Source of the DNA: Chitinophagaceae bacterium | GTDB lineage: Bacteria > Bacteroidota > Bacteroidia > Chitinophagales > Chitinophagaceae | Length of the DNA: 64,000 nucleotides | Reading direction: 5' to 3' | Assembly (NCBI GenBank): GCA_043788995.1 | Contig: JAYWII010000121.1 | Coordinates: 15,361 to 79,360, forward strand | The notes under the pieces: model-generated | The model's database searches: none | Seen by the model: only the letters and a program-made list of their open reading frames with translations | Told to the model about the DNA's origin: nothing | Translations under genes and position numbers: made by a program | Shown here: piece by piece, positions 8,563 to 62,324 of the stretch | Layout: the number at the start of each line of letters is the position of its first letter | How positions within the stretch are numbered: the stretch's first letter is position 1

Positions 8563-8565
8563 TCT

Positions 8566-9903: not shown

Positions 9904-9998
9904 CATAAAGTGAAAGTGTTTTTTTAAACCCTTTACTTTGCAAACAAATTCTTTAATAAATATTATAAATACTGTAACTCAAATAAAAATAATTTGAT

Positions 9999-10928: not shown

Positions 10929-10936
10929 TAAAGTAA

Positions 10937-14371: not shown

Positions 14372-14372
14372 C

Positions 14373-44880: not shown

Positions 44881-45036
44881 ACTGTAAAATCAATTGCAAA
44901 GATGACGAAAATAACCTTTGCTTTTGCTAACATGCCCGGGCGGTAAAATCAACCGGGCAATTGTTTTAAAAATTTGGTTAACAATTTAATAATATATAAG
45001 CAGGCCAAACCTGCAACTTTAATTAATATGATAGAG

Positions 45037-45044
45037 TACTTTTG
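45037..45044 (+). promoter_or_regulatory. -7 promoter box for the response regulator
   Basis: TACTTTTG, 15 nt before the ATG. Confidence 0.65.
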
Positions 45045-45059
45045 CATCGCAAATAACGT

Positions 45060-45740
45060 ATGAGTACTGTTAAAAAAGTTTTAATTGCAGATGATGAGCC
45101 AGATATCCTGGAGATAATTCAGTTTAACCTGCAGACTGAAGGCTACGAAGTGATCACTGCAAAGAATGGTGATGAAGCCCTTGAACTGGCTAAAAAACAC
45201 CAGCCCAATTTGATTATCTTAGATGTGATGATGCCTTATAAAAATGGCATCGAGGTTTGTAACATCCTTCGCTCTCAGCCGGCCTTTAAAGATACATTGA
45301 TCATTTTTCTTTCAGCATTGAGCGATGAAAGCACGGAGGTTCGTGGACTGGAAACAGGAGCAGATGATTATTTAACCAAACCCATCAGCCCGAAAATTTT
45401 AGTAAGTAAGGTGAACGCATTGTTCAGGCGGTTGAACAACAAACAGGGCGGCGATGTAATCAATATTGGCGACCTTGCCATTGACAGGGAAAAATATATT
45501 ATCCGCTACAAAGGCGGTGACATCATTCTTGCAAGAAAAGAATTTGAACTACTGGCACTGCTGGCATCCAAACCCAATAAAGTTTTTCTACGCAACGAAA
45601 TATTAAACCAGGTTTGGGGAACAGAAGTAATTGTTGGAGACCGCACCATTGATGTACATATCAGGAAAATAAGACAGAAATTAAATTTAGACTGCATTAC
45701 CACCGTAAAAGGAGTGGGCTATAAATTTGAAATGCAGTAA
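45060..45740 (+). CDS. OmpR/PhoB family response regulator (PhoB-like)
   Basis: DDEPDI, LDVMMP, GADDYLTKP, RTIDVHIRKIRQK, TVKGVGYKF. Confidence 0.92.
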   Translation: MSTVKKVLIADDEPDILEIIQFNLQTEGYEVITAKNGDEALELAKKHQPNLIILDVMMPYKNGIEVCNILRSQPAFKDTLIIFLSALSDESTEVRGLETGADDYLTKPISPKILVSKVNALFRRLNNKQGGDVINIGDLAIDREKYIIRYKGGDIILARKEFELLALLASKPNKVFLRNEILNQVWGTEVIVGDRTIDVHIRKIRQKLNLDCITTVKGVGYKFEMQ

Positions 45741-45759
45741 CCCCCATCCCAAAAAGGGG
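45740..45759 (+). repeat. Single REP-like copy after the response regulator stop
   Basis: 18/20 match, followed by the same TGTTA flank as the copy at 24577. Confidence 0.75.
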
Positions 45760-45811
45760 TGTTACATTTATAAACAAATATCTTTGCCAATAAATATCGA
45801 AAGAAACAGGC

Positions 45812-46861
45812 ATGTTTTCAGCAAAGAATTTATCTCCACAGCAATTATCTGCTTTTACAGCAGGCATTATTGCAGCACCAGTAAGCCTGGGTATTTATTT
45901 TTTAAAACCTGTTTGGTGGGTGGCCCTTACTGCATTTGTTATCATCTTCCTTGGTGCTTACGGCCTGGTGCTTTTTATGGTGCAGCAATTTATTTACAGG
46001 AAAATAAAATTGATCTATAAACTCATCTCTCAAACAAAAGCAAGTAAACGGGAAGAGTTCTATTATAAAAATATCCTGCCCCAAAAAAGTATGGATGAAG
46101 TAAGAGCAGATGTGGAAGACTGGGCAAGACAAAAGAAAGCTGAGATAGAAATCTTACAACAGAACGAAGCATACCGCAAAGAGTTTTTGCAAAATTTATC
46201 TCATGAATTAAAGACACCCATTTTTGCTATACAGGGTTATGTAGATACATTATTGAATGGTGCGTTGGAAAACCCGAATGTGAACCGTAAGTTTTTAAAC
46301 AGCACTTCAAGAAACATCGACAGGTTAGTAAATTTAGCCGATGACCTGGATGAGATCTCAAGACTGGAAGGCGGTGAGCAAAAGTTACTGATAGAAAACT
46401 TTGTAATACAGGAATTGATAAAAGATGTGTATGAATCACTGGCGATAAAAGCGGATGAAAAACAAATAAAGCTCACCATTAAAAAAGGCTGTGAAGTTCC
46501 ATTAACGGTAAATGCGGATAAAGAAAAAATGAGGCAGGTATTTATTAACCTGGTGGACAATGCTATTAAATATGGCAAGCAACACGGTGTAATTGAAGCC
46601 AGTATTTATAAGATAGACAGTAAAAGAATATTAGTAGAGATTACGGATGATGGGATGGGTATTGCGGAAGAACACCTGGGAAGAATTTTTGAACGTTTTT
46701 ACAGAACAGATGCTGCCCGGAGTAGAAAAATTGGAGGCAGTGGTCTGGGGCTTGCGATTTGTAAACACATTATAGAGGCACACGGACAAACGATGCATGT
46801 ACGCAGCGCCATTGACGTAGGAACCACTTTTGGTTTTACATTAGACAGCAGGAAAGAATAA
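45812..46861 (+). CDS. Sensor histidine kinase (PhoR-like)
   Basis: Two TM helices, H-box LSHELKTP, NAIKY, DDGMGI, GGSGLGL. Confidence 0.92.
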   Translation: MFSAKNLSPQQLSAFTAGIIAAPVSLGIYFLKPVWWVALTAFVIIFLGAYGLVLFMVQQFIYRKIKLIYKLISQTKASKREEFYYKNILPQKSMDEVRADVEDWARQKKAEIEILQQNEAYRKEFLQNLSHELKTPIFAIQGYVDTLLNGALENPNVNRKFLNSTSRNIDRLVNLADDLDEISRLEGGEQKLLIENFVIQELIKDVYESLAIKADEKQIKLTIKKGCEVPLTVNADKEKMRQVFINLVDNAIKYGKQHGVIEASIYKIDSKRILVEITDDGMGIAEEHLGRIFERFYRTDAARSRKIGGSGLGLAICKHIIEAHGQTMHVRSAIDVGTTFGFTLDSRKE

Positions 46862-46903
46862 ATTTTTTTCCGTTGGAACAGAGTAATTTTGCTCTGTCTA
46901 TTT

Positions 46904-47491: not shown

Positions 47492-47520
47492 ATTGGGTTT
47501 ATTGGTAAAGTAGCACTTGC

Positions 47521-48714
47521 CTATTCAATTATCTTCTCTTCAATTTTACCTGTCTGCTTATTTTTGAGAATCACTTTTTTTGCTCCGTAATGAGTCATCT
47601 CTTCTTTGATTAAATAATGATCAGCATCATATTCTACCAGATGGCTTTCTTTACTCAACCCTGTTTTGCCACGCCAGTCTTCCAGTAATACAGGCTCCCA
47701 CAATTTTGTTTTGGCACTTTTGTAAGCTGCGTCAATTATGGCATTCACAACGTATCCATCATAAAATGTTTCCCTTGGTACTGTGCCATTCTCCATACAC
47801 CTGAACATTTCTGTGAACATGTGATTATATCCCAGTTCATTGATCTCATCTCCTACCGGGAATAACCATCCGCTGTTACTCTCTGCTTTTTCGGCAATAT
47901 AATCTCCACCCTTACCTGTAGTAAACATTTCAAAACCAGTTCTTAAAAAATTATTGATCCAGATAGTTCCTTCTGTGCCCATTACTTCATCTCTAAGATC
48001 TAAACCACCACGAAAGGTCCAGCTCACTTCAAACTGTGCAATCGCACCATTTTCATATTTGATCAAAGCTATAGCATGATCTTCTGCATCGATGGGTTTT
48101 ACCTGTGTATCTGCCCAGCACATCACTTCTATTGGCTTAATATCTTTCCCAATAAAACTCCTGGTGATCTCGATACAATGACAACCCAGATCTAAAATAC
48201 ATCCACCGCCGGCAAGTTCAATATTCCAAAACCAATCACTGTGTGGACCCGGATGTGTTTCCCTGCTCTTGGCCCACAATATTCTACCTAGAGCACCGCT
48301 CTTTACACTCTCGTATGCTTTTAAAAATTTAGGAGCATACACCAGGTCTTCCAGGTAACCATTGAAGATGCCTGCTTCCTCTACTGCCTTCAGCATACGT
48401 AACGCTTCAGCAGCATTTCTGCCAAGCGGCTTGGTGGTGATAACTGCTTTTTTATGTTTACAGCAAAGCATTACCGCTTCCTCATGCAGATGGTTAGGTA
48501 AGGCTATGCATACAACATCTGTATCAGGGTGAGCAATGGATTCTTCCATGTCAGCAGTGAAATGCTGGCAGCTATAATCTGCTGCAAATTTTTTTGCACT
48601 TTCTTCTTTACGGGAATAGACACTTGTGATGATATCCTTACTTCTTTGACCCAGTATGGAATCTGCATAAAAGCGGCCGATAAAACCAGACCCAAGCATT
48701 GCAATACGTTTCAT
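47521..48714 (-). CDS. Gfo/Idh/MocA family oxidoreductase
   Basis: GSGFIG, ALPNHLH, TKP, GGGCILDLGCH. Confidence 0.9.
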   Translation of the reverse strand: MKRIAMLGSGFIGRFYADSILGQRSKDIITSVYSRKEESAKKFAADYSCQHFTADMEESIAHPDTDVVCIALPNHLHEEAVMLCCKHKKAVITTKPLGRNAAEALRMLKAVEEAGIFNGYLEDLVYAPKFLKAYESVKSGALGRILWAKSRETHPGPHSDWFWNIELAGGGCILDLGCHCIEITRSFIGKDIKPIEVMCWADTQVKPIDAEDHAIALIKYENGAIAQFEVSWTFRGGLDLRDEVMGTEGTIWINNFLRTGFEMFTTGKGGDYIAEKAESNSGWLFPVGDEINELGYNHMFTEMFRCMENGTVPRETFYDGYVVNAIIDAAYKSAKTKLWEPVLLEDWRGKTGLSKESHLVEYDADHYLIKEEMTHYGAKKVILKNKQTGKIEEKIIE

Positions 48715-48785
48715 TTATATAAGTTTGATGTGGGTCTTAAAGTTAAGTAAAACGTTTATTCAATACCGCAGTTTTGTTGAATGTT

Positions 48786-48853
48786 TTAATACAATTATTC
48801 ATGTTTTGTTAACAGCCAGTTCATATTAAAGAAACATAGCTATTTGAACTTTG
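48786..48853 (+). promoter_or_regulatory. Candidate Pho-box-like array plus -7 box
   Basis: TTCATG(48798), TTAACA(48809), TTCATA(48820), GAAACA(48831) at 11-bp period, 9-nt gap, GAACTTTG(48846). Confidence 0.5.
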
Positions 48854-48868
48854 ATTTAAACTCTACCA

Positions 48869-49720
48869 TTGGAAAAAAGAAAAATGGAAGTTGCAGTTAT
48901 TTCCGATGTGCATCTGGGTACTTATGGATGCCGTGCAAATGAACTGTCCCGCTACCTCTCTACAATAGATCCCACCATCCTGGTGCTGAACGGAGACATC
49001 ATCGACATCTGGCAATTCAGTAAAAAGTACTGGCCTCCGGGACACATGCAGGTGATCAAACAAATTACAAGTATGCTTAGCCGTGGGGTGAAAGTGTATT
49101 ACATCACCGGCAATCATGATGAAATGCTCCGCAGGTTTGAGAATTTTTCAGTGGGTGATTTTCATATTGTAAATAAATTAGTCATTCATCATGGCAACAA
49201 TGCCAGAAGCTGGATATTTCATGGAGATGTGTTTGATGTAACCATGCAATACAGTAAATGGTTGGCTAAGCTGGGAGCGGTGGGATACGACATGCTGATT
49301 TACATTAATGCCTTTATCAATTATATCAGTAAAAAATTAGGTAAGGGTAAAATATCTCTGTCAAAAAAAATTAAAAATTCTGTAAAGACTGCAGTTAAAT
49401 ATATTAACAGCTTTGAGCAAACTGCTGCAGAGATCGCTATTGAAAAAGGATACGATTATGTTCTATGCGGTCATATTCACCAACCGGCAGACAGGATCAT
49501 CACCACCAATAACGGAAAAGTAAATTATCTAAATTCTGGTGACTGGATTGAAAACCTGACCGCATTAGAATACAGCGACAACAAATGGACGGTGTATCAT
49601 TATCAGCAGGATGAATTAGTAAAGGAACTACACAATTCCTATTACATAGATGAAGCTGCATATTTACGTACAACAGAATTGTTCAAAATGATGATGGAAG
49701 ATTTTTCAAAAGCTTCTTAA
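48869..49720 (+). CDS. Metallophosphoesterase, LpxH/PlcP-like
   Basis: SDVHLG, GDIID, YWP..H, GNHD, HGDVFD, GHIH, NSGDWIE; TTG start. Confidence 0.85.
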   Translation: MEKRKMEVAVISDVHLGTYGCRANELSRYLSTIDPTILVLNGDIIDIWQFSKKYWPPGHMQVIKQITSMLSRGVKVYYITGNHDEMLRRFENFSVGDFHIVNKLVIHHGNNARSWIFHGDVFDVTMQYSKWLAKLGAVGYDMLIYINAFINYISKKLGKGKISLSKKIKNSVKTAVKYINSFEQTAAEIAIEKGYDYVLCGHIHQPADRIITTNNGKVNYLNSGDWIENLTALEYSDNKWTVYHYQQDELVKELHNSYYIDEAAYLRTTELFKMMMEDFSKAS

Positions 49721-49728
49721 AATTTAAA

Positions 49729-50787
49729 ATGATGAAAGTACTATACGCCATACAGGGAACAGGTAATGGACATGTGAGCAGGGCCAACGAAATTATTCCA
49801 ATGCTGCAGCAAAAGTGTGAACTGGATATTTTACTCAGCGGTACGCAGGCAGATGTAGGTGTTAATTATCCTGTTAAATACAGGCTCAAAGGGTTGAGTT
49901 TTGTTTTTGGTAAAAAAGGTGGCATCGATTTTTATAAAACATTTGAACAACTGCAATCAAAGAAATTTTTAAGTGAAATAAAAGCATTGCCAGTAGAAGA
50001 CTATGATTTAGTGATCAACGATTTTGAACCCATCAGTGCCTGGGCATGTAAAATAAAAAATGTTCCCTGTATAGCCATGAGCCACCAGTTTGCAGTATTG
50101 CATAAAAATGCACCCAGGCCGGCAAAGTTTGATCCCCTTGCACTGATGGTATTGCGTTATTATGCTCCCTGCAAAACTGGCGTAGGTTTTCATTTTAAAA
50201 AATATGGTGAAAATATTTTTACCCCGGTAATAAGAAAAGAAATCAGGAATGCAACTGTAACAAATAAGGGGCACTATACAGTTTACCTGCCTGCCTATGA
50301 CGATAAAAAAATAATTTCATTTTGTTCCAATTTTAAAAATACTGACTGGCAAATTTTTTCCAAACATACAAAAAAATCATACCGGGAAAAGAATTGCTGG
50401 ATACGCCCCGTAAGTGCAACTGATTTTACTGAAAGTTTTATTAGCTGCGAAGGTGTTCTTTGCGGTGCAGGTTTTGAAACACCGGCAGAAGCATTGTACA
50501 TGCATAAAAAAGTGCTGGTGATACCAATGAAGGCGCAATACGAACAACATTGCAATGCAGCAGGCGCTGCAGAACTGGGCGTTCCTGTAATTAAAAGTTT
50601 AAAGAAAAAACATATTCACAAAGTGGATACCTGGCTGAGCAGTGAGCAGCAAATTGAAGTGGATTTTGAAGATGACACCAACCAGATAATAGACCAGGTA
50701 TTATCTTTAGCGGCTTCAAAAAAGCTTGATGAAAAAGTGAGAAGAAAATTAATTGTACCAGAAGCGGTATCAGCGCAATGGGTTTAG
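49729..50787 (+). CDS. GT-B glycosyltransferase
   Basis: QGTGNGHVSRA, DFEP, GAGFETPAEA, QYEQHCNA. Confidence 0.85.
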   Translation: MMKVLYAIQGTGNGHVSRANEIIPMLQQKCELDILLSGTQADVGVNYPVKYRLKGLSFVFGKKGGIDFYKTFEQLQSKKFLSEIKALPVEDYDLVINDFEPISAWACKIKNVPCIAMSHQFAVLHKNAPRPAKFDPLALMVLRYYAPCKTGVGFHFKKYGENIFTPVIRKEIRNATVTNKGHYTVYLPAYDDKKIISFCSNFKNTDWQIFSKHTKKSYREKNCWIRPVSATDFTESFISCEGVLCGAGFETPAEALYMHKKVLVIPMKAQYEQHCNAAGAAELGVPVIKSLKKKHIHKVDTWLSSEQQIEVDFEDDTNQIIDQVLSLAASKKLDEKVRRKLIVPEAVSAQWV

Positions 50788-50829
50788 AAAATTAATACAG
50801 TCATTATTTAAGATCCGGGGAAAACTAAT

Positions 50830-51957
50830 TTATAAACTATCAATAATTTCTTCTGCATATCCGAACGACAATGTCATACCTGCACCACCCAATCCATTGA
50901 TAATATAAACACCCGGTTCAGGTGAAATAAAAAGCTCTGTGTCTCCATTCGTTAGTTTTGGATAAATACCATTCCAGTTTTCTTTGATTTTCCAGTTTTT
51001 AAACTTTGCTATTTTTTTTAAGTAAGAAAGAATTAAATCATTGATCTCCACTTTATCAAAAGGGTCATGTGTTAATCCATATTCATGTGAATCACCGATG
51101 GTCAGTTCACCCACTTCATTTTGTGCCACCATTACGTGTATGCCCCAGTTGATATACTCACTCATCTCTGTATTATATCTTTCTTTTAATTTTTCCAAAG
51201 AAGGTGCAGCAGCAAAGCTTTTGTAATGGATCAATGATAAACCTCCGCAAAGTGCAGGGCCTATCCGCCACTTATCCGGCTGTGTTTGCAGCCGCATCAT
51301 TTGCAGTTTACATTTAGTGATGGGCAATTTTAAATATACTTCAGGGTACAAGGTTTCAAAATCTGCACCGCTGCAAATAAGTATCACATCTGCTTCATGT
51401 TCTTCATCATTGCCAATGTACACTGTGTTATCTGCTATATAAGTAATGCATTTACCCCAGTAAAATTCCACACCATTTTTTTCATTCAAATAAGTTGGTA
51501 TCAATTCTATTGCATGTCTTGCATCCACCAGTAATTCATCTTTACTGTACAGCCCTCCCAGCAAACCATTGGATTCCACGGCTGATGAAAAATCTGTTAC
51601 CTGGTCTTTATTAAACAAAGCAATGGTTCTTTCCTTATTATAACAATCGTACAATTCATGCAACACCTGCATCTCATCCTGTTGATGTGCCACATGAATA
51701 CTGCCTGCTTCACTGTGCCAGATATTGGCTTCTGTGCAGATCTGTTTCCAGATTCTTCTGCTTTGCAACGCTCTTTCATATAGTTTTCCTGATGGCTGCC
51801 CAATGGGCCATATCATTCCAAAATTTCTGATGGACGCACCAACGGCTTTTTGGCTGCGTTCAAAAACCTTTACCTTAAATCCTTTATTAGTAAGTGCCCT
51901 TGCTGTTGCCAGGCCTACAATACCTGCGCCGATAACGATGGCTGTACGTTGTTCCAT
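50830..51957 (-). CDS. FAD-dependent amine oxidoreductase, TIGR03364/PbfC-like (phosphonate-associated)
   Basis: GAGIVG, GASIRNFGM, IGDSH, GLGGAGMTLSFG; cluster context. Confidence 0.85.
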   Translation of the reverse strand: MEQRTAIVIGAGIVGLATARALTNKGFKVKVFERSQKAVGASIRNFGMIWPIGQPSGKLYERALQSRRIWKQICTEANIWHSEAGSIHVAHQQDEMQVLHELYDCYNKERTIALFNKDQVTDFSSAVESNGLLGGLYSKDELLVDARHAIELIPTYLNEKNGVEFYWGKCITYIADNTVYIGNDEEHEADVILICSGADFETLYPEVYLKLPITKCKLQMMRLQTQPDKWRIGPALCGGLSLIHYKSFAAAPSLEKLKERYNTEMSEYINWGIHVMVAQNEVGELTIGDSHEYGLTHDPFDKVEINDLILSYLKKIAKFKNWKIKENWNGIYPKLTNGDTELFISPEPGVYIINGLGGAGMTLSFGYAEEIIDSL

Positions 51958-53246
51958 ATAGCAAAACCTTTTTTATGCTTATTTAAAAAATACATAACAG
52001 AAAAAACCGTGGCGATTACACCGAAAATTGAAACCCCTATAATCGCATTTGAAAAAAAACTGACCCATTGCAGCCGGATATGAAATACTTCTTTACCCAA
52101 CAAAACAAGCATGCTTCCCAGGTAACCAAAAGAATCAGCACAATACATCAGGAAGCCTACATTGCCATTGATGCGGAATGCAGCGATCATTCTTTCAAAC
52201 AGCATACAGTTAAAAGGTATGTAAGCAGTATACAATCCGATACCCACTAAAATCATCCAGGTAGCAGGATGAATGGCCTGGTTTAAAAAAAGCCAGGTGG
52301 ATACGCCGCTCAATATAAAACCCAGTATGATCAAACCATGAGCAATAATAAATGCGTTAAAACTTTTTTTCACAAACACTAAACTGGCGATCAGGATCAA
52401 AACAATAATAGTAACGGGAATTTCTGTTTCGGTAAATATCGCAGCCTGGTTAGAGAAGCCCAATTCATTCCAGATATCCGCAGCAAAATTATCTCTCATA
52501 TCCCTGAAGATGGTGAGAAACACATAGATGATGATGAGCAATAAGATACCCGGAAAAAAACCAGCGATTAGTTTTTTTCTTTCTTCTTTACTCATCGGAT
52601 TTCTTGGATGCCTTAGCCGGATATCTGCTTCAGTGGGAGCAGGTATTTTTTCTAATAAAAAAACAAAGATCAATAATGGTAAAATAAACAATAAGCCGGT
52701 GGCAAATGGAAGCCAAAATTCAGTAACACTCCAATGAAGCATTAAATACTTGGCAACGGATTTTACAAAACCAGAAGAAAAAATAAAACTTACTGCCAAA
52801 GCGGCTCCAATAAAATCAGTGGCCCGCCTTCCTTCGATATAAGAAAATATGATACCCCAGATAATACCTAACGGAAAGCCATTAAAGAAAAGAAAAACAA
52901 TATTGACAGGTGGAGGAACAACTGCAAAAAAAAGTAGTGAGATCCATGAGATACCAACCAAAACGAACATCATCTTCCACCTGCCAATTTTTTTTAACTC
53001 TGAAATAAATTTTATTCCATAAAACTTACTGCAGACATACCCGGCAAGCTGTGTGATTACCAAACATACTTTATAACTGATGCCCCAATAACTCAGGCCA
53101 TCAAAAGTAGCAACGGTAAATGGCTTACGGAAAGCATATACCGTTCCGTACGTTAAGAACACAGCTATGGCCGCAAACACTGCCACAACTGTGGGATGAT
53201 TAAAAAATGTTTTACTTATAGATGCGTTAGTTTGCAACAGCAACAT
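51915..53246 (-). CDS. DUF5690 family MFS-like membrane transporter
   Basis: About 12 TM; YAFRKPF, SYIEGRR, DSFGYLGS; overlaps both neighbours. Confidence 0.8.
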   Translation of the reverse strand: MLLLQTNASISKTFFNHPTVVAVFAAIAVFLTYGTVYAFRKPFTVATFDGLSYWGISYKVCLVITQLAGYVCSKFYGIKFISELKKIGRWKMMFVLVGISWISLLFFAVVPPPVNIVFLFFNGFPLGIIWGIIFSYIEGRRATDFIGAALAVSFIFSSGFVKSVAKYLMLHWSVTEFWLPFATGLLFILPLLIFVFLLEKIPAPTEADIRLRHPRNPMSKEERKKLIAGFFPGILLLIIIYVFLTIFRDMRDNFAADIWNELGFSNQAAIFTETEIPVTIIVLILIASLVFVKKSFNAFIIAHGLIILGFILSGVSTWLFLNQAIHPATWMILVGIGLYTAYIPFNCMLFERMIAAFRINGNVGFLMYCADSFGYLGSMLVLLGKEVFHIRLQWVSFFSNAIIGVSIFGVIATVFSVMYFLNKHKKGFAIWNNVQPSLSAQVL

Positions 53247-53934
53247 TTTTTATTAGTGATGGCAATTCTTTCAGGTCATCAATAATTTCATCAGGTTGAT
53301 AAGATTCCAATTCGGCTCTTGTAAAAGAACCAGTGGTAACAGAAACCACCAGGCCACAACCAGCAGTTCTGCCTTCGGCAATATCCACTTCTGTATCCCC
53401 AACTTTAACCACGGTCCCTGCATCTGTAATACCAGTGGCTTTCATAATAGCCTGTATCATATCTGCCGATGGCCGGCCATTTTCCACTTCATCACTGCTG
53501 ATAATAAAATCAATTAAACTGTTATCATGCCATCCAACCCTTTCCATGATAGTGTCGGTAATCAGTTTTGAAAAGCCCGTATTCAACGCTACTTTAATAT
53601 CATTATCCTGCAGCCATTTAAAAATCGATTCTGCACTTTCTATCGGCAGTATCTCTTTGGAATGTTCATAAAAATCAATCATGGTTTCAATGAATGTGTC
53701 ATGAATTTCATTGATCAAATTTTCACTTTCGATAATGCTGCCGGGGTAATTGGATTGGAGCAAATCATTAATAGCAATCATTTTTTTATAGCCCATTACT
53801 TTATTCGCCTGGTCCTTATCAATGGGGTAGCCATGCTTTTGCATCGCATACATAAATGCTTCGGCCACATTTGAATTATCCTGGATAGTGGTGCCGGCCA
53901 TATCAAACACTACTAATTGAAAAGTTGGTTGCAT
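53227..53934 (-). CDS. Phosphonatase-like HAD hydrolase (PhnX-like, TIGR03351-type)
   Basis: FDMAGTT, MGYKK, ALNTGF, GRP, KVGDT..DI.EG. Confidence 0.85.
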   Translation of the reverse strand: MQPTFQLVVFDMAGTTIQDNSNVAEAFMYAMQKHGYPIDKDQANKVMGYKKMIAINDLLQSNYPGSIIESENLINEIHDTFIETMIDFYEHSKEILPIESAESIFKWLQDNDIKVALNTGFSKLITDTIMERVGWHDNSLIDFIISSDEVENGRPSADMIQAIMKATGITDAGTVVKVGDTEVDIAEGRTAGCGLVVSVTTGSFTRAELESYQPDEIIDDLKELPSLIKNVAVAN

Positions 53935-53943
53935 ATCGTTTAA

Positions 53944-54534
53944 TTATATCTGGTTAAATGCGTATTGTCTTTGCAGGTAGTTTATCATTAAGTCTTTGAA
54001 ATAATCCATTGGCTGCAGGGGCAGGTTTTCTTCCTTAGCTAACTCATCCCACCGGCGCATTGCTATAAACTCTTCAAACAATTCATCCTGTTCAAATAAC
54101 AGGGCTTCGTCATAATTCATTCTGCCGCCCTGGAACTCCAGTGTTTTTTTACTGGCGTCTGAAAGACCTTCGTAATATTCAGGATATTTAAAAGTGAGAT
54201 AACGTTTTGCTGATACATGATTTTCCACCAGCCTTGCAATTCTTTCACTAAATCCTCTCTTACGTAAAAAGTTGGCGCCGATCTTTTCATGATTCATCAC
54301 ACCAAAGCCATTCATATCTGCTGTGATGTAAGATGCTGCACAGATATGCCCGATATCATGCAGGAAAGCAGCAAGCACTATTTCATCATCATACCCACCC
54401 TCCTTTGCTAACTGAGCTGCCTGCACCATGTGCTCCAGTTGGGAAACTTTTTCACCGGCATATTCATTGCTACCATGTTTTTGATAGAGCTCAAATATTT
54501 CTTCCACTACCGGGATGATTTTTTTAGCAGTCAT
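53944..54534 (-). CDS. HD-domain phosphonate oxygenase, PhnZ-like
   Basis: YAGEKVSQLEH, LHDIGH, HEKIGA, HVSAKRYL, RRWDELAK. Confidence 0.85.
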   Translation of the reverse strand: MTAKKIIPVVEEIFELYQKHGSNEYAGEKVSQLEHMVQAAQLAKEGGYDDEIVLAAFLHDIGHICAASYITADMNGFGVMNHEKIGANFLRKRGFSERIARLVENHVSAKRYLTFKYPEYYEGLSDASKKTLEFQGGRMNYDEALLFEQDELFEEFIAMRRWDELAKEENLPLQPMDYFKDLMINYLQRQYAFNQI

Positions 54535-54614
54535 AAACCTGATTGATAGTTATTACAATTTATTTGACCGTATTTAATTGCTATACAACCTGACGGTCAG
54601 CAGTAAAATTTAAT

Positions 54615-56171
54615 TTATTTAATGATCCACATTTTTGCATTGATATCATCGGTGCCACCAAACTGTGATTGAATAGCACTGCTTACATTAGCCAGGTTGA
54701 TTGACTTTTCAGAAACTGGATATTGAAATCTTAATGCTACTCTTTCACTATTGCCAGTTCCAGCGCCTGTATGAAAAGCAGGTGTACCCGTTCTGCGCCA
54801 GTTATAATATGCTTCCCAGCCACTGTTCTGGTAAAAGGCAAGGTATTTTTGAGTTAATATTTGTTCTAATGCTGTCGTTTTTGCTTCGGATAATTTTACT
54901 GAAGGCTGGTTATAGTAAGTGGCCCAATCATAATTAATTGTATAAGTATTATAATCGTTTAATGTGCCGCCTGGTTTTTGAAATGTTACGGTATTACTAC
55001 CATCAGCAATATCATAAAAACCAATACTGGCCTGTATACCTTTTTTATACCAGTCTTCTTCATTGCCAGTAATCCATCCACGAGTGATAGCTTCTGCTAT
55101 ATTAAAGCAGAGTTCAGGGTAACCTACCTGTATGGTATTCTCTGCCGTATAAGTACTGTAATATCTTTTACGGTTAATAAAAGAATATTTACCTAACCCT
55201 GCATCAGCACTCATGTTGGCCAGGTCTTCACCGCTGCCTGCACCTTTAAACGCATCAAAACTATTAGGCGCCTTGCCTGCTGCTACCAACGCCGCTGCAG
55301 GCTCTGCTACATAAAAAGTACGTGGATCTCTAAGCGAAACCAATCTGTCCAGGTAAGTAGAAGTCATGTTGTAACGGGCAGCATCAAAACCAAAATTATC
55401 CGGATTGGTGGAGTATTTATTGTATTGGTTGTTGTAGGTATATTGCAAATTTTCACTCATACTTTCAAACACAGGATACTTAGATGAGTTGGTAAACGTT
55501 TCTGCAAATTTTTGTTTTACGTTTAAATCAGCATCAGCTTCCTGCTTACTCAATTGTATCAATACCCTCAGCTTAAAACTATTGACTGCTTTGCGCCATT
55601 TATTTAAATCATTATTATAATAAAAATCGCTGGACAATATATAATTACCCTTTGTAACAATCGCAGCCATTTCATCATTTGATTCTTCCAACCATGCCAG
55701 TATTTGTTTAAATACATCCTTTTGAGTATCGTATTTTGGAGCGGTATTCTCCAATGATTTTAATGCTTCAGATACCGGGATATCACCTGTTTGCATGGTA
55801 AGATTATAGTACATATATGCTCTTACATATTTACCAATGGCGGTATATGGATTAGGTGCAGGAATACTTTTAGCCGCTTCCTCTTCCATCTTAATTACAT
55901 TCTTCAATGTATTGTAGGTATTAAATGAAACACCGGTCCAGGTATATTGCTGGTCACCGTAGTAGGCATAATTGCAGGCATAAAACTGGTTCCAGCGCTG
56001 GGTAGGTGTAAATGGTTCTTCAAATATATCTGTCAGTACCCCATTTAAAATAAGATTTGCAGGAACGCTGGTTGGTCTGTTAGGGTCGCTCTCCAGCGAA
56101 TTAAAATCTTTTTTACAGGAAGCAACAAACAAAGTGCTGCTCATTAATATGATTGAAAATATCTTTTTCAT
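54615..56171 (-). CDS. susD: SusD/RagB family outer-membrane lipoprotein
   Basis: Lipobox FVASC, DPN, GDIPVSEAL, EAYYNWRRTG; downstream of susC. Confidence 0.9.
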   Translation of the reverse strand: MKKIFSIILMSSTLFVASCKKDFNSLESDPNRPTSVPANLILNGVLTDIFEEPFTPTQRWNQFYACNYAYYGDQQYTWTGVSFNTYNTLKNVIKMEEEAAKSIPAPNPYTAIGKYVRAYMYYNLTMQTGDIPVSEALKSLENTAPKYDTQKDVFKQILAWLEESNDEMAAIVTKGNYILSSDFYYNNDLNKWRKAVNSFKLRVLIQLSKQEADADLNVKQKFAETFTNSSKYPVFESMSENLQYTYNNQYNKYSTNPDNFGFDAARYNMTSTYLDRLVSLRDPRTFYVAEPAAALVAAGKAPNSFDAFKGAGSGEDLANMSADAGLGKYSFINRKRYYSTYTAENTIQVGYPELCFNIAEAITRGWITGNEEDWYKKGIQASIGFYDIADGSNTVTFQKPGGTLNDYNTYTINYDWATYYNQPSVKLSEAKTTALEQILTQKYLAFYQNSGWEAYYNWRRTGTPAFHTGAGTGNSERVALRFQYPVSEKSINLANVSSAIQSQFGGTDDINAKMWIIK

Positions 56172-56192
56172 TGGTTGATTTTTTATTACTTA

Positions 56193-59100
56193 TTAAAAAA
56201 CAATATTTAGATTAATACCATAACTCCTGGTAGTAGGCGTTTGCAGGTTGGTGCCAGATTGGCTACCGGCATATTGGTCAATATCCACATCATTGAAACG
56301 TTTGTCTTTCATTATGTAAAGGATATTACGTGCCACAAAAGAAACATTGGCCTGCTGAATAAAACTCTTTCCAACGGGGATGTTATATCCTAACACGATC
56401 TCTCTCAATTTCAGGTACGACTTGCTCATCATGTTTGGCTCAGGGATACTATTTACACGGCTTGTATAATCCTGGGCATATGTTGTGGTGGTATTGGTTG
56501 CAAATTGCAATTCACTGTAATTGGTAATTAAACCTGTTACCGGATCAAAAGTTATTGCAGTACCATTGGATACCTGTACACCTTCGCCAACGTACGCCTT
56601 GATACCCTTTGTGTCTTCATAACGGGCAATACCCAATGCACCTTCCGCTGTTTCAATATGGCGTCCTCCCTGGAATGTTTTCTTCCTAACATAATCTTCC
56701 ATTACACCACCTACACGTCCGTCGAACTGGAAGCTGAACGATATATTTTTATAACTAAACTTGTTGTTTACACCCCAAACCCAATCAGGATTAGAATTAC
56801 CTGCATACTGTGCTACCGGCGATATGATTGGCCTTCCTCCTGCATCATTGATAATTTGTCCATTAGGTGTACGTGCAAATTTTCTGATGTACACTTCATC
56901 TGTACGGCTTCCTTTTGTATAAAATGTATAAAGATTGGTAACGCCTTCAGGTAATTCCTTAAAGGTTTCCTTAAAGGTTGACCAGTTCACCAGCACATCC
57001 CAGTTAAATCCATCCGCAGATCTGATGGCTGCACCTGCCAATGTAATTTCCAACCCCTTCTTTTGTGTTTTGGTTGCATTAATGGTATAATTAGAATAGC
57101 CGGAAGCTGCAGAAATTTGTTTGTTAAATATCTGCGGACCATCTATATAATTGAAATAGGCCACATCAATCCCGATCCTGTTTCTTAAGAATTTCATATC
57201 CAGTCCCAATTCTACGTTGGTTCTGTTATCCGGCTTAATATTATCATCTAACACTTTATCTGTAAAGCGGGCTTCTGTTGTATTGTTATAACCTACTCCT
57301 GTGCTGTACACATTGTTATATGAATAAGATGGGCCACCATAAGAGGAAGTATATTCAGCACCATAGCCCAGCGGGTATGAACTGTTAGGTGTGGCACCAA
57401 TGGTATTGGCTACAAAGGAACCACCACCTCTAACCTGTGCATAAGATGCTCTTAACTTAAAGAAAGAAATAGCAGCAGGGATTTTTATGTAATCACTGAT
57501 AACGGTACTAACGTTTACGGATGGGTAAAAGAAAGTATTGTTCTTACTGGACAAGGCAGATAATTTATCTACTCTTCCAGTGGTGTTGATATTGGCGTAT
57601 TTACCTAAACCGAAATCAACTGAATAATAACCACTCTGCACTCTCATGTCCGAAGCAAAATTGTATGCCAGCACCGGGTTGCGGCTGTTGCTGAAAGTAT
57701 ATACATTCGGTACGTTCAAATAATTGGTGGTAACAAAACTGGAGGCATAAGAAAAAGTACGGAGGTTAGCACCGATGAATCCACTCATGTTTAAAAAGCC
57801 AGCTACCTGTGGGGATTTCAGCCGTACCATTACTTCTGTATTGTTTTCAAACAACGAACGTTTATCTTCCCTGTAATCACCCCTTCCCTCTTCACGACCG
57901 TATGGATGTGCTGAGAAAGGCATTTTTTCTGTCCTGGTTAAATCATAAGTAGTAACAGAAGTTCTCGCCATCAACTCTACATATTTATTAGCCTTATAAT
58001 TCAATGTTGCATATCCATAAATATCATTTTTATGATGCCCACGCAGCCATTCATAGCTCATAAAATAAGGATTGTGATAGCGCTGGTACTCAGCATAGAT
58101 GCTTTGCACACCTTCTTTACCAGGTTGCCAGTAATTACGCATATCATCTACGTTCCAGTCTGCACCACCCCAGATCGTCATGTTATAAATAACACTGTTG
58201 GGGCCATAATTTACATCTGGTATATTATCGGTGTATTGCTTGTTGAAATTGATGTTTGCATCCAGCGTCAATTTTTTACTAAACTTCAAGGTGGCAGCCA
58301 GGTTAAAATTGCTGGTGCTTAAATCTGTGTTGGGAATAATTCCCTGCTGATAGGTTTGCCCTACAGAAAAACGCAGATCATATTTTTCACCACTTGCAGA
58401 AACAGCAATATTATTGGTAGATAATACACCGGCCCTGATAAAACGCTGCAGGTTGTCTTTACCTCTTGCAGTCCATGGAGTTGGGGTACGGATGCCCGTT
58501 ACCGGATCAACCGGGCTGTCATATTGCTCAATTAACTGGCCATCAAAACGTGGTCCCCAGATATCATAATCGTTGTCATTTACGCCGCCGCCTTTGCCAT
58601 CAACAAATTTGTATTTGCCGTGATCACCCGGACCATACAGATCCTGTGTTTTAGGCAAAGCAATAAAACCTTTGTTCATCATGGTACTGCTGTTAAATTC
58701 CACAGAGTAGCCACGCTTGTCTTTGGTACCTTTTTTGGTAGTGATAATGATGGCACCATTCTGCCCACGGTAACCGTACAATGCAGAAGCAACAGGGCCT
58801 TTCAATACCGTGTAACTTTCAATATCATCCGGGCTGATGTTCCAGGTATCTGAATTGATGGGAACACCATCTACTACATACAAAGAAATATTACCACCCC
58901 GCAGTAATATCTGCGGAGCACCCAACAATTCTGCAGAAGCACCAACCGTAAGGCCTGCTACTTTACCTACCAGGGAGTTAATGGGGTTTGGTTCACGGGC
59001 CTTTATCAAATCACTTCCCTTCACTTCCTGCTGGGAGTACCCAATAATTTTTTTATCTTTTTTAATACCGAGTGCTGTTACCACCACTTCGCCCAATTGC

Positions 59101-59414
59101 TTATTTTCTGCAACCAGGCGAATGGTTAAAAATTCTTTGGAAGCTGTGATTTGTTGGTTTTGAAATCCAATAAAACTGATGTTCAGTTTTTCTCCCTGGG
59201 CAGCAGTTATTTCAAAAGTTCCATCCGCACCAGAGATGGCGCTTTTGCTGGAAGTCTTACTGATAATACTTGCGCTTTCTACAGGAGCGCCATTTTCTGC
59301 ATCTACTATTTTTCCTTTAACAGTGATGGTTTGTGCATTTAAAAACTGGGAGGAAAGAAATATTGTTATTACTAATAACAACAGTCTTTTGAATGGGGAA
59401 ATTACTTGCTTCAT
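56193..59414 (-). CDS. susC: SusC/RagA family TonB-dependent transporter
   Basis: EVVVTALGI, LKGPVASALYGYRGQNGAIIITTK, C-terminal LNIVF. Confidence 0.95.
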   Translation of the reverse strand: MKQVISPFKRLLLLVITIFLSSQFLNAQTITVKGKIVDAENGAPVESASIISKTSSKSAISGADGTFEITAAQGEKLNISFIGFQNQQITASKEFLTIRLVAENKQLGEVVVTALGIKKDKKIIGYSQQEVKGSDLIKAREPNPINSLVGKVAGLTVGASAELLGAPQILLRGGNISLYVVDGVPINSDTWNISPDDIESYTVLKGPVASALYGYRGQNGAIIITTKKGTKDKRGYSVEFNSSTMMNKGFIALPKTQDLYGPGDHGKYKFVDGKGGGVNDNDYDIWGPRFDGQLIEQYDSPVDPVTGIRTPTPWTARGKDNLQRFIRAGVLSTNNIAVSASGEKYDLRFSVGQTYQQGIIPNTDLSTSNFNLAATLKFSKKLTLDANINFNKQYTDNIPDVNYGPNSVIYNMTIWGGADWNVDDMRNYWQPGKEGVQSIYAEYQRYHNPYFMSYEWLRGHHKNDIYGYATLNYKANKYVELMARTSVTTYDLTRTEKMPFSAHPYGREEGRGDYREDKRSLFENNTEVMVRLKSPQVAGFLNMSGFIGANLRTFSYASSFVTTNYLNVPNVYTFSNSRNPVLAYNFASDMRVQSGYYSVDFGLGKYANINTTGRVDKLSALSSKNNTFFYPSVNVSTVISDYIKIPAAISFFKLRASYAQVRGGGSFVANTIGATPNSSYPLGYGAEYTSSYGGPSYSYNNVYSTGVGYNNTTEARFTDKVLDDNIKPDNRTNVELGLDMKFLRNRIGIDVAYFNYIDGPQIFNKQISAASGYSNYTINATKTQKKGLEITLAGAAIRSADGFNWDVLVNWSTFKETFKELPEGVTNLYTFYTKGSRTDEVYIRKFARTPNGQIINDAGGRPIISPVAQYAGNSNPDWVWGVNNKFSYKNISFSFQFDGRVGGVMEDYVRKKTFQGGRHIETAEGALGIARYEDTKGIKAYVGEGVQVSNGTAITFDPVTGLITNYSELQFATNTTTTYAQDYTSRVNSIPEPNMMSKSYLKLREIVLGYNIPVGKSFIQQANVSFVARNILYIMKDKRFNDVDIDQYAGSQSGTNLQTPTTRSYGINLNIVF

Positions 59415-59440
59415 AAAACAACGTTTAGTTTTGTATGAAG

Positions 59441-59507
59441 CAAAACTACCAGCGCTGTGTTAAGTAATAATTGTGGGAATATTAACTAAAAGTAAAGTAA
59501 TGGTAAA
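59441..59507 (-). promoter_or_regulatory. Candidate Pho-box-like array plus perfect -7 box for the phosphonate operon
   Basis: TTTACC, TTTACT, TTAATA, (ACAATT), TTAACA at exact 11-bp period, 9-nt gap, TAGTTTTG at 59448-59441. Confidence 0.6.
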
Positions 59508-59529
59508 CTTATTGTAGTATTGAGCCAAC

Positions 59530-59552
59530 TTTGTTTACAAATATTAAACAAA
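59530..59552. promoter_or_regulatory. Candidate XRE operator (8-7-8 inverted repeat)
   Basis: TTTGTTTA-CAAATAT-TAAACAAA. Confidence 0.45.
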
Positions 59553-59583
59553 AGATTAAGAAATTATTAAAGCCATTTTGAAA

Positions 59584-60162
59584 TCATGCTTTCTCTTTGA
59601 ATATATAGATTACCAGTATTAAGGCATCCTCTTCTCCTGTATTATAAGGGTTATGCAATTCTGTTCCATCAAAAAAAAGTGAGTCGCCTTCTTCCATCTC
59701 ATAAGTCTCTTCTCCGATCTTATATTTTATTTTTCCCTTTAACAGGTATTTAAATTCGAAGGCATCTGTACTTACAAAATCTCTTTCCGAATCTCTTTCT
59801 AATCGAAGTAATACAAAGTCTGCATGGTATTCATGTATGGTGGTGGAAAGCAGGCGCTGGTAATAAAATCCTTTGGCATTTTCTTTTTCAAAAGGCTGGT
59901 ATTGTTCTTTCTTTTTAAAGATCACTTTACTGTCCTTGGGCTGAAGATTGATATCCTTAAAAAACTCATTAAAATCTACCTGCAGGGCTTTAATTAAATT
60001 CAGCAAAACTGTTAAAGAAGGAATGGTACGGCTGTTTTCTACCTGGCTCAGCATGCCTTTTGTTACACCGGCTTCTTCTGCCAGTTGCTGCAGGGTGATG
60101 TCTTTTTCTTTACGGATATCTTTCAGTCGTTTGCTTATCTGTATAATAATATCTTCCTGCAT
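59584..60162 (-). CDS. XRE-family HTH plus cupin transcriptional regulator
   Basis: TLQQLAEEAGVTKGMLSQVEN..TIPSL; cupin EFKYLLKG...GDSLFFDG..H. Confidence 0.92.
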   Translation of the reverse strand: MQEDIIIQISKRLKDIRKEKDITLQQLAEEAGVTKGMLSQVENSRTIPSLTVLLNLIKALQVDFNEFFKDINLQPKDSKVIFKKKEQYQPFEKENAKGFYYQRLLSTTIHEYHADFVLLRLERDSERDFVSTDAFEFKYLLKGKIKYKIGEETYEMEEGDSLFFDGTELHNPYNTGEEDALILVIYIFKEKA

Positions 60163-60209
60163 ATTCTATTGGATTTTATTTTTATGATGATGCCAATCTT
60201 TTATTTAAA

Positions 60210-60614
60210 TCATTCCTTTATTTGAAGTAATAGTTTTTTTGCTTCCCGGGATAATTGAGAAGCATTGCTTATCCCTTTGAATGAAAAAGTAAACTGGCTG
60301 CAGTCATCACTATTCATCCTGAAATAAATATCCTGTATCACCATATCGGTTTTAAAAAAATGAATTGATCCATCATAGCCGCAGTTAATTTTTTCTTTGG
60401 TAATATCATCTGCAATAAAACTGCTCAACTGGTTCAGTGTATTTTTATCTTTTATCATCTTAACCAGTACCACCGTATCCATACTGCCATCGCCTTTAAA
60501 ATAATTAATAGCAACACTGTCGGCAAGAACCAACCGTTCTTTCAGTTCTTTATTATTGTGCTTACAGGAAAAAAATAAAGCCGTTGCAAAAATGATTATC
60601 AGTGTTGTTCTCAT
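60210..60614 (-). CDS. Small hypothetical lipoprotein
   Basis: ATG at 60614 gives the signal MRTTLIIIFATALFFSC. Confidence 0.7.
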   Translation of the reverse strand: MRTTLIIIFATALFFSCKHNNKELKERLVLADSVAINYFKGDGSMDTVVLVKMIKDKNTLNQLSSFIADDITKEKINCGYDGSIHFFKTDMVIQDIYFRMNSDDCSQFTFSFKGISNASQLSREAKKLLLQIKE

Positions 60615-60640
60615 ATGATAAAGATAAAAGTAAAGGGCAT

Positions 60641-60752
60641 AAAAAAACCACCCAATATGATTAAAAGGTGGTACAAGCATGAGATTTACTAATTGCTTAA
60701 GGAACTTGTTTGTATTGCTATAACTTAACCGATTGCCTTGTTTTACTTGATG
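60641..60752 (-). ncRNA. Candidate ~110-nt small RNA or regulatory leader
   Basis: Lies between a -7-like box (GAAATTGCA from 60762) with an upstream 11-bp-period array and an ACCACC/GGTGGT+T6 terminator at 60672-60641. Confidence 0.4.
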
Positions 60753-60755
60753 CTG

Positions 60756-60810
60756 CAATTTCAAATTGTTTTGTTACTGAAACATTAATTACAGATTAAG
60801 GTTATGTTAT
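60756..60810 (-). promoter_or_regulatory. Candidate Pho-box-like array plus -7-like box
   Basis: ATAACA, TTAATC, TTAATG, GTAACA at exact 11-bp period, 9-nt gap, GAAATTG. Confidence 0.55.
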
Positions 60811-60917: not shown

Positions 60918-62324
60918 TTAAAATTTTGTCCATATTTTCCACCAGGTATCGCCTACTGCACATGCACCTTTGTAAGTAACCGGAGTAAATCCTGTTGCAA
61001 GTTTTGGATGTGTGAAAGCACCACCTGTTACTGCTACCGAAGCTGCAGTTGGATTAAAGTCAGGGGCTGTATAATTAAATGGAGCTGTTAGACCCACTTC
61101 AGTGTTATTGGTAAGGATACTGTTACCATAATCTGCAGTATTGAACCATTCTGTAATAGTAGCAGTGGTATTTGCCGTAAGCGGAGCGTTTGTATTAGAA
61201 CCTAAGCTGTACAACACCGGCGTAGCACTGCCTGCGATAATATTGTTTTGTACAAACAGGGAACCAGGGATATTATTATCAGTTGGAACACCTTTGGTAG
61301 CATCAATATATAAACCATTTGGATAACCCATGATGATGGAATTAAAAAGAGACAGGCTTGAATTTCTCCTGATCTGTGCACCCCATACAAATAAATTATT
61401 TCCTCTATTAGCCAATGTTTCTCTCGGTCCCATTACGGTCATGTTAGAAAAGATTGCTGCAGTTTGCGGCAATAAAGCACTACCGTTTGCATCATTATCA
61501 CTTTCAAATGCTTCACTTTTAGAAATATCAGCAACAGATGAATCTCTTAAAGAAATACCAAACTGTACTTTACCAACAAAACCATTATCTGTATCAAAAT
61601 CATCATCCAAAGTTCGGAAAGAGATAAGGTGGGTACAATTTACAGTACCGCCAAACCATTCAAAAGAATCATCATTGGCGTAAGATACCTGCACATAATC
61701 GACAATTGTTTTGTTACCCACACCACCAAATGTTAAACCATTAATTTCTTTATCTGGTAAAAAAGCAAAGCCTGCATATTCAATACGAACATACCTTAAG
61801 ATACCACTGTTATCAGCAGGATTTTGTGCCTGTGTTGCAGGTGTACCATATAAACCCAATCCATCACTGTTGTTGATACCGCCTTCAATTTCCCCTATAC
61901 CCTGTACTCCATTAAAAGATGAATTAGCAGGAGCATTACCTAATACTACCAAACCAGCCCAATCACCACGCTGAGGGGTAGCCGCTTCTGATGTAAATAC
62001 AATTGGTTTTTCGGCAGTAGCATCAGCAATAATTTTACAGCTTCTTGTAATAATCAGTCCGCCATTTTTACCAGCTTCACCTACTATTTTAGTGCCTGGT
62101 TCTATCGTAAGAATGGCACCATTAGTTACATAAACCAATCCACGTAATTTATAAACATAATCTGCCTTCAGGGTCCTGTTAGCTGTTATACGTCCTTCCA
62201 GGATCGTGTTTTCTGTTTCACCTGTTGGTGGAGTTGTTGTACTGCCATTATCATCCACCACAATTTTGCGGCAACTGGTAAACAGGGCAGCGAATAATAC
62301 ACCGTAAATAAATAACTTTTTCAT
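60918..62324 (-). CDS. Surface lipoprotein with probable right-handed beta-helix
   Basis: Lipobox LFTSC; SGILRYVRIEYAG, NGLTFGGVG, DDSFEWFGG, DDDFDTDNG. Confidence 0.75.
   Translation of the reverse strand: MKKLFIYGVLFAALFTSCRKIVVDDNGSTTTPPTGETENTILEGRITANRTLKADYVYKLRGLVYVTNGAILTIEPGTKIVGEAGKNGGLIITRSCKIIADATAEKPIVFTSEAATPQRGDWAGLVVLGNAPANSSFNGVQGIGEIEGGINNSDGLGLYGTPATQAQNPADNSGILRYVRIEYAGFAFLPDKEINGLTFGGVGNKTIVDYVQVSYANDDSFEWFGGTVNCTHLISFRTLDDDFDTDNGFVGKVQFGISLRDSSVADISKSEAFESDNDANGSALLPQTAAIFSNMTVMGPRETLANRGNNLFVWGAQIRRNSSLSLFNSIIMGYPNGLYIDATKGVPTDNNIPGSLFVQNNIIAGSATPVLYSLGSNTNAPLTANTTATITEWFNTADYGNSILTNNTEVGLTAPFNYTAPDFNPTAASVAVTGGAFTHPKLATGFTPVTYKGACAVGDTWWKIWTKF

Follow-up and report, generated by a model that had tools for sequence, protein, structure and literature searches.

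A window of 64,000 nucleotides (nt) from a Ferruginibacter genome (Chitinophagaceae, Bacteroidota; 6.27 Mb, 38.7% G+C), corresponding to bases 15361-79360 of contig C121, was analyzed for a promoter architecture in which TTAACA-like hexamers repeated at an 11-bp period end a fixed distance upstream of the -7 box. Arrays of this kind precede a plcP-like metallophosphoesterase gene, the susC gene of a phosphonate locus, a candidate small RNA and, just beyond the window, a TonB-dependent receptor gene, while a related two-unit box lies upstream of a phoB-like regulator gene. The arrays exceed chance expectation, keep their register in other genomes and are associated with phosphorus-related genes. 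We put the probability at roughly 80% that they are Pho boxes, that is, operators for the phosphorylated PhoB-type regulator encoded at 45060-45740 on the plus strand. Pho boxes and their 11-bp period are already known, as is the TTTAACA word in Bacteroidota. What sequence comparison supports in addition is a grammar of unit, number and offset tied to the -7 box, the conservation of this grammar, a small and coherent putative regulon in a genome that lacks both Pst and PhoU, and a predicted small RNA driven by a Pho box.

Anatomy of the arrays

An earlier note on this DNA had listed hexamers, 11-bp steps and promoter boxes at four sites, and all of its coordinates proved exact. At the first site, upstream of plcP, four units span 48798..48841 on the plus strand (TTCATG at 48798, TTAACA at 48809, TTCATA at 48820 and GAAACA at 48831) and are followed, 9 nt past the last hexamer, by the -7-like box GAACTTTG (48846..48853). 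The second site, upstream of the phosphonate susC, consists of five units on the minus strand (59453..59507; TTTACC at 59507, TTTACT at 59496, TTAATA at 59485, ACAATT at 59474 and TTAACA at 59463), again with 9 nt between the last hexamer and the box, here the consensus -7 box TAGTTTTG (59441..59448). At the third site, in front of the candidate small RNA and also on the minus strand, four units (60767..60810; ATAACA at 60810, TTAATC at 60799, TTAATG at 60788 and GTAACA at 60777) precede the degenerate -7-like box GAAATTGC (60755..60762), which starts 9 nt past the last hexamer as counted in the window. The fourth is a probable autoregulation site, the two-unit box TTAACAATTTAATAATA (TTAACAATTTA followed by ATAATA) at 44978..44994 on the plus strand, upstream of the phoB-like gene and its consensus -7 box TACTTTTG (45037..45044).

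The highest-scoring array in the genome (61.3 bits) lies outside the window, at the promoter of the TonB-dependent receptor gene (C121 80566-80631, window-equivalent 65206-65271, minus strand). It is made of six (G/T)TAACATTnnC units, TTAACATTGTG GTAACATTGTC TTAACATTTCC GTAATCTTTCA TTCACATTGAC GTAACATTGGA, followed by GCCG, the box TCTCTTTG, 16 nt and the start codon. The 9-nt gap after the last hexamer thus recurs here, and the 8-bp box ends in TTTG. Orthologous receptor promoters in 19 other genomes have 4-7 units in the same register, and in every case the last unit is followed by 4 nt and a TCTCTTTG-like box. Pooled, these units read (G/T)TAACATTnCC, with T2, A3, A4 and C5 nearly invariant and the spacer positions free.

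Array sites have 3-7 units in total. The exact 9-nt gap proposed in the earlier note holds at the receptor, plcP and susC promoters but not in the small-RNA family, where the box is degenerate; there the gap is effectively 8 nt, because the box, aligned on TTGCA, sits one base closer than that of the receptor. The receptor, plcP and susC promoter families all keep an invariant TTTG in the -7 box, whereas the TA is present at susC and phoB and usually missing at the receptor, plcP and small-RNA promoters. In ordinary promoters of the source genome the start of the -33 TTTG peaks 22-24 nt before the -7 box, and it is this place that the second-to-last array unit covers. The array therefore occupies the -33 position; that it also replaces the -33 element, as the earlier note had supposed, is an argument by analogy with Escherichia coli pho promoters. 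On the same analogy, array promoters would have an activator-dependent anatomy, in which the bound regulator stands in for recognition of the upstream element.

The arrays exceed chance expectation

The earlier note had cautioned that AT-rich DNA yields hexamers by chance, and this caution was justified: several single hexamers are poor (2-3 mismatches to TTAACA), and when mismatches to TTAACA were simply counted across four hexamers, period 11 stood out only modestly. This count was too weak a test and was replaced by a weight matrix. A first matrix, made from the six receptor units of the source genome itself, found little excess elsewhere and was in turn replaced by one pooled from the receptor promoters of the 19 other genomes, with the source genome excluded. 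Because it was built solely from the receptor arrays of other genomes, the final matrix is independent of both the source genome and the earlier note. A second peak in the plain count, at period 8, was traced to an unrelated 8-bp tandem repeat (ATTAGCAC / ATTAGCTA, 3-5 copies) found at C124 ~11640, C12 ~56820 and ~27070, C70 ~12525, C62 ~10530 and C129 ~25320. These repeats precede start codons, mostly by ~30-50 nt and on C129 by ~230 nt.

With the pooled matrix, the best in-phase run was scored for each upstream region of the genome (n=3754). The receptor ranked 1st, the gene of a choice-of-anchor I protein 2nd, susC 3rd (23.8 bits, matched by zero shuffled regions), a paralogue of the 468-aa (amino acid) lipoprotein described below 4th and the small RNA 5th (18.7 bits, shuffle fraction 1e-4). 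Five regions reached at least 18 bits, as compared with 0.4 in dinucleotide shuffles and 0-1 at periods of 9, 10, 12 or 13, so the excess is restricted to period 11. With the added condition that a TTTG lie 18-19 nt past the first base of the last unit, susC ranked 3rd and plcP 5th of 3754, the latter with an architecture score of 9.4 bits (empirical p = 0.0013). At this offset ten regions scored at least 6 bits, versus 0-3 at control offset pairs. When both strands of the window were scanned, the susC and small-RNA sites were the two top runs. The spacing-constrained genome scan and the comparison with shuffled background, both of which the earlier note had proposed, therefore came out in favor of the architecture.

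Array register is conserved in other genomes

The register of the arrays relative to the -7 box is kept across the genus and in other families, and the scan of orthologous promoters was favorable at the receptor, plcP, susC and small-RNA sites, with the core kept at phoB. Three units followed by 9 nt and NNNNTTTG were found in 14 of 20 orthologous plcP promoters (empirical p <=0.005), the boxes at this offset including AAATTTTG, GTACTTTG, TTATTTTG, GAATTTTG and similar words. The array-bearing plcP orthologues include members of other families of the same order, as in the example TTAACCGATTG GTAACATTTAG TTTACA TACAAGGCG GAATTTTG. Related susC genes were few, with only three among 40 relatives, and in each of these an array of several units stands in register with a TAnnTTTG box. 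For the small RNA, 15 other Ferruginibacter genomes share the array ATAACATTnnC GTAACCnnnnG TTAATATTnnC ATAACA (TTAATATT being the third unit), followed by TAATTTGC, AAACTTGC or GAATTTAG as the box.

The phoB promoter follows a different plan. Of 79 orthologous Ferruginibacter promoters, 78 share a 17-nt core, TTAACAATTTnATAATA, amid variable flanks, and the -7 box TAnTTTTG is kept in 77. The core lies 47-49 nt before the -7 box, with a mode of 48 (15 + 33). The hexamers TTAACA and ATAATA at 44978 and 44989, which the earlier note had placed in the same register as the other sites, are thus a real and strongly constrained two-unit site, but one located three helical turns (33 bp) upstream of the activating position. 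With its intact -7 box next to this distal element, the phoB promoter looks self-sufficient.

When 401 genomes from across the phylum were searched for three perfect units, 37 matches turned up in 30 of them, versus 4 for a reversed control. The first genes behind these arrays encode two PstS-type binding proteins, two ABC permeases (PstC-like), a phosphate-selective porin O/P and a Na/Pi cotransporter. Seven more loci had as their best match one of the source genome's two array-linked receptors. Several of the arrays are again followed by 9 nt and then TAGTTTTG or TAACTTTG. A regulator gene was found near 1 of 29 arrays, with the limit that the 1.5-kb flanks were too short for this comparison.

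Genes behind the arrays

In the source genome, the genes with the top arrays serve phosphorus scavenging or belong to types with a known low-phosphate response, and they include the phosphonate locus and the plcP-glycosyltransferase pair. The latter, a putative regulated operon at 48884..50787 (plus strand; Pfam Metallophos and Glyco_trans_1_3), encodes a lipid-remodelling pair. The phosphonate locus (50830..59414, minus strand) is a putative regulated operon encoding SusC, SusD, a PhnZ-like HD oxygenase, a PhnX-like hydrolase, a DUF5690 membrane protein and a TIGR03364 FAD oxidoreductase. Other array-linked genes encode an ExeM/NucH extracellular nuclease, a phosphodiesterase-like enzyme, a choice-of-anchor I protein adjoining a MauG-like gene and three additional receptor-plus-lipoprotein sets, one of them beside an S41 peptidase gene.

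Contig C18 (66.6 kb) carries a second array-bearing gene cluster (for example at 748-1869, 6280-16500 and 43637-58112). Besides a 2093-aa choice-of-anchor I protein with a MauG-like gene beside it, the cluster encodes two TonB-dependent receptors and three paralogues of the 468-aa lipoprotein. It also holds genes for a phosphodiesterase-like enzyme, an ExeM/NucH nuclease and an S41 peptidase, as well as an operon for glycosyltransferase functions and an OmpR-family regulator of atypical kind. The lipoproteins of ~460 aa form a family with one member in the window (60918-62324, minus strand, 468 aa) and three on C18 (43637-45064, 45547-46914 and 49980-51368). They have no match in Pfam or NCBIfam and are always beside Pho-box promoters or TonB-dependent receptors. 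They are probably the counterparts of the low-phosphate 'FI/FII' lipoproteins of Flavobacterium johnsoniae. A single-sequence AlphaFold model of the 468-aa protein had a mean predicted local distance difference test (pLDDT) score of 31.6 and no usable fold; analogy with Fjoh_0546 is the sole pointer to a possible pectin-lyase-like structure.

A conserved small RNA behind the third promoter

The candidate small RNA is a conserved predicted transcript of ~110 nt downstream of the site-3 box (60641..60750, minus strand), delimited in an alignment of 16 genomes, with the 5' end placed from the box. This alignment bears out the earlier note's suggestion of an RNA at this place. The 5' part varies among the 16 genomes, and is followed by an invariant ACAAG/CUUGU stem enclosing UUCCUUAAGCAAAUAGCAAAUUCUCAUG (60709-60673, minus strand) and by a GC-rich terminator hairpin with a U-run (60671-60641, minus strand), in whose stem two pairs show compensatory changes (UA/CG and GC/CG). 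All 16 genomes are Ferruginibacter, and the RNA is often close to phoBR. A scan of the region against Rfam 15 yielded no family match, the best scores being 14-25 bits versus gathering thresholds of 43-55.

The RNA is followed by a gene for a small lipoprotein (60210-60614, minus strand). In 14 genomes this gene has its own TATCTTTA box ~5 nt before the ATG (60606-60626 in the window, minus strand), a position that suggests a leaderless or near-leaderless mRNA.

Assignment to a regulator and competing explanations

The regulator at 45060..45740 (plus strand; Pfam Response_reg and Trans_reg_C), which we propose as the protein that binds the arrays, combines a receiver with a winged-helix output domain and adjoins a short histidine kinase of 349 aa (45812..46861, plus strand; HisKA and HATPase_c), a PhoR-like partner; the two have the make-up of a two-component system. 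It is the genome's best PhoB match, and the kinase is the best PhoR match. Across 80 Ferruginibacter genomes the regulator is 81-98% identical. Its gene lies within ~20 kb of four array-bearing promoters, and many genomes show synteny between this gene and the receptor, plcP and small-RNA targets; in one relative plcP is directly 3' of the kinase gene. From the invariant box at its own promoter, the synteny with its targets and the precedents of F. johnsoniae and Riemerella, we infer that this is the regulator to which the arrays belong.

Several observations weigh against the interpretation of the arrays as Pho boxes bound by this regulator. Scored by best run alone, neither the plcP site (rank 64 of 3754, shuffle fraction 0.011) nor the phoB site (rank 233 of 3754, shuffle fraction 0.06) is significant; both are retained because they are conserved in orthologous promoters. 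The phoB box lies off the activating position, and the -7 box of the small RNA lacks TTTG in the source genome. Position 9 of the second-to-last unit is G in 12 of 19 receptor promoters, which creates a TTG ~20 nt before the -7 box and may leave a weak residual -33 contact. The regulator also misses the PhoB equivalog cut-offs (229.1 versus 296.2 bits for TIGR02154 and 209.4 versus 270 for the Bacteroides-type PhoB), as does the kinase for PhoR (175 versus 500 bits, with no PAS domain match); because both fall below these cut-offs, the curated scores do not file them as PhoB and PhoR. Five other full-length OmpR-family regulators are encoded in the genome. Finally, no PhoU domain and no PstB above cut-off were found in the whole genome. 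A pst operon, sought as a positive control, was likewise missing from the genome, which has one orphan PstS-like protein (C91 98681-99637) lacking an array. Genome searches for PhoX and PhoD gave one weak match each.

That the phased hexamers merely reflect chance in AT-rich intergenic DNA is refuted by the controls and can be given next to no weight. Single hexamers are indeed weak, the plain count is modestly enriched and two of the sites fall short of significance alone, yet the excess over shuffles is specific to both the period and the offset, the register persists across dozens of genomes while the spacers vary, and in the phylum scan three perfect units far outnumber the reversed control. 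An origin of the arrays as protein-independent elements, be it phased bent DNA, UP-like elements or remnants of tandem repeats, is very improbable. AT-rich DNA with an 11-bp periodicity can curve, and the arrays do lie directly upstream of promoters; however, the conserved positions are specific bases (TAAC, its C nearly invariant) rather than A-tracts, the array targets are functionally coherent, and the same word was found by sequencing of affinity-purified DNA (DAP-seq) and confirmed through EMSA (electrophoretic mobility shift assay) for a Bacteroidota PhoP (PMC9603813).

The alternative that deserves most attention, although we regard it as unlikely, is that the arrays are real but are bound by another OmpR/PhoB-family regulator, such as the atypical one of the second cluster. 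This protein (C18 62339-63016) is one of the five other family members and is encoded on an array-rich contig, the 45060 regulator scores below the PhoB cut-off, and related regulators such as ArcA are said to have similar motifs (PMC9603813). On the other hand, the 45060 regulator is clearly the best PhoB match (209 bits, with the next regulator at 177), the promoter of its own gene carries a near-invariant box, its gene keeps synteny with the receptor and plcP targets in many genomes, and the phoBR locus of F. johnsoniae has the same neighbors (PMC8115612). We therefore keep the 45060 regulator as the preferred candidate.

The helix-turn-helix (HTH)-cupin regulator encoded next to the phosphonate operon (59584-60162, minus strand) was considered as the binder of the susC array and rejected, as the same arrays occur at unlinked promoters and regulators of this type use inverted repeats.

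Proposed mechanism

In the scheme that we favor, the kinase would phosphorylate the 45060 regulator upon phosphate limitation, and regulator dimers would then fill the array cooperatively; because the 11-bp units are arranged head-to-tail, the bound protomers would lie on one face of the helix. The promoter-proximal protomers would contact sigma and bring the RNA polymerase holoenzyme to promoters in which a good -33 element and a full -7 box are missing, thereby activating rather than repressing transcription in a phosphate-dependent manner. The targets would be the receptor and lipoprotein operon, the plcP-glycosyltransferase pair, the phosphonate SusCD/catabolic operon and the ~110-nt small RNA, with the distal two-unit box serving in the control of the regulator's own operon. 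Because neither PhoU nor a PstB above cut-off is encoded in the genome and the kinase has no PAS match, the signalling route to the kinase known from E. coli cannot apply, and phosphate sensing must, as judged from gene content, differ from the E. coli model.

A more general proposal can be made only tentatively, and we would sooner bet against it than for it in full: namely, that the array with its fixed 8-9-nt gap to a -7 box lacking TA is an activation grammar throughout Bacteroidota, in which a Pho-regulator oligomer replaces -33 recognition by the unusual primary sigma factor of the phylum, that in Ferruginibacter, without PstSCAB and PhoU, the short PAS-less kinase senses phosphate in another way, and that the grammar also drives the small RNA, not described before, as a post-transcriptional arm of the Pho response.

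Other features of the window and its relatives

Downstream of the receptor promoter, the receptor gene itself enters the window from beyond its end (62367 to >64000, minus strand). At 62380-62401 on the minus strand, where the receptor coding region ends, a pair of units (CCAACGTTAGC TTAACATTCGG) is separated by 9 nt from AATTTTTA. This pair, ahead of the 468-aa lipoprotein gene, may form a weak internal promoter. At seven of the orthologous plcP loci (L014, L015, L017-L020 and L022), the Pho-box promoter and plcP are separated by a short open reading frame of ~33 codons (MKNIRYFFLNLSVRIFLPMLSAFYPALKFYKIH-like). The PlcP proteins of this group are ~60% identical, and the reading frame is missing from the window.

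Significance and comparison with known systems

In soil, in the rhizosphere and in water, organic phosphorus is recycled to a major extent by Bacteroidota. With a unit, a period and an offset to the -7 box, Pho regulons should become predictable from sequence in thousands of uncultured genomes. It also becomes possible to mark genes of unknown function as related to phosphorus, such as those for the small RNA, the choice-of-anchor I protein and the lipoproteins associated with the receptors. The same promoters may also provide phosphate-switched parts for Bacteroidota genetics. To specialists the outcome will be expected rather than surprising. Nevertheless, it defines the switch for a little-studied soil and freshwater group and points to a lineage in which a Pho switch operates without the Pst-PhoU sensor. 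In the literature searched, expression studies of the low-phosphate response of Bacteroidota were found, but no operator grammar for it.

The repeat itself resembles the site of PhoP of Bacillus subtilis, which reportedly recognizes TT(A/T/C)ACA hexamers with ~5-bp spacers at an 11-bp period. Four or more repeats are said to be required, with dimers oligomerizing along the array. This word all but coincides with the Ferruginibacter (G/T)TAACA, and the period is identical; the partner, however, is a sigma-A promoter with -10 and -35 elements in B. subtilis and a Bacteroidota -7 box at a fixed 8-9-nt gap in Ferruginibacter. The PHO boxes of Streptomyces consist of 2-8 direct repeat units of 11 nt, of which at least 2 are needed and weak ones are filled cooperatively beside core units (PMC2275107). 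They share with the Ferruginibacter arrays the 11-nt unit in variable number and differ in having a GTTCACC-type word, a high-GC host and documented activation as well as repression (PMC2275107). For E. coli PhoB, the work of Makino and of Blanco 2002, as cited in PMC9306846, describes 11-bp direct repeats bound head-to-tail by dimers, a box that stands in for the -35 element and keeps a constant spacing to the -10, and an autoregulated regulator. The E. coli word is CTGTCAT, usually in two units, and signalling needs PstSCAB and PhoU, whereas Ferruginibacter has TAACA in 3-7 units and a genome with neither PhoU nor a PstB above cut-off.

Within the phylum, the low-phosphate stimulon of F. johnsoniae offers a match in gene content. 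There, phoBR adjoins the strongly induced TonB-dependent transporter gene Fjoh_0545 and the gene for the pectin-lyase-like lipoprotein Fjoh_0546. Low phosphate further induces PlcP and a glycosyltransferase, together with nucleases, SusCD-like 'Pus' systems, an S41 peptidase and a MauG-like protein (PMC8115612). This set matches the array-linked genes of Ferruginibacter, including the neighbors of phoBR. The F. johnsoniae work consists of expression data and apparently defines no operator, while in Ferruginibacter the operator is derived from sequence alone. In Riemerella anatipestifer, DAP-seq and EMSA with PhoP identified TTTAACA as the most conserved nucleotides and placed binding sites upstream of a TonB-dependent receptor gene and of the operon that encodes the regulator itself. 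Phosphate starvation raises expression of this two-component system, and a single motif was derived from 583 peaks, with emphasis on virulence and aerotolerance targets (PMC9603813). This core word, from the same phylum, matches the Ferruginibacter unit, a likeness at the level of the motif. The Riemerella study describes neither a repeat grammar nor a relation to the -7 box, and the Ferruginibacter arrays have both.

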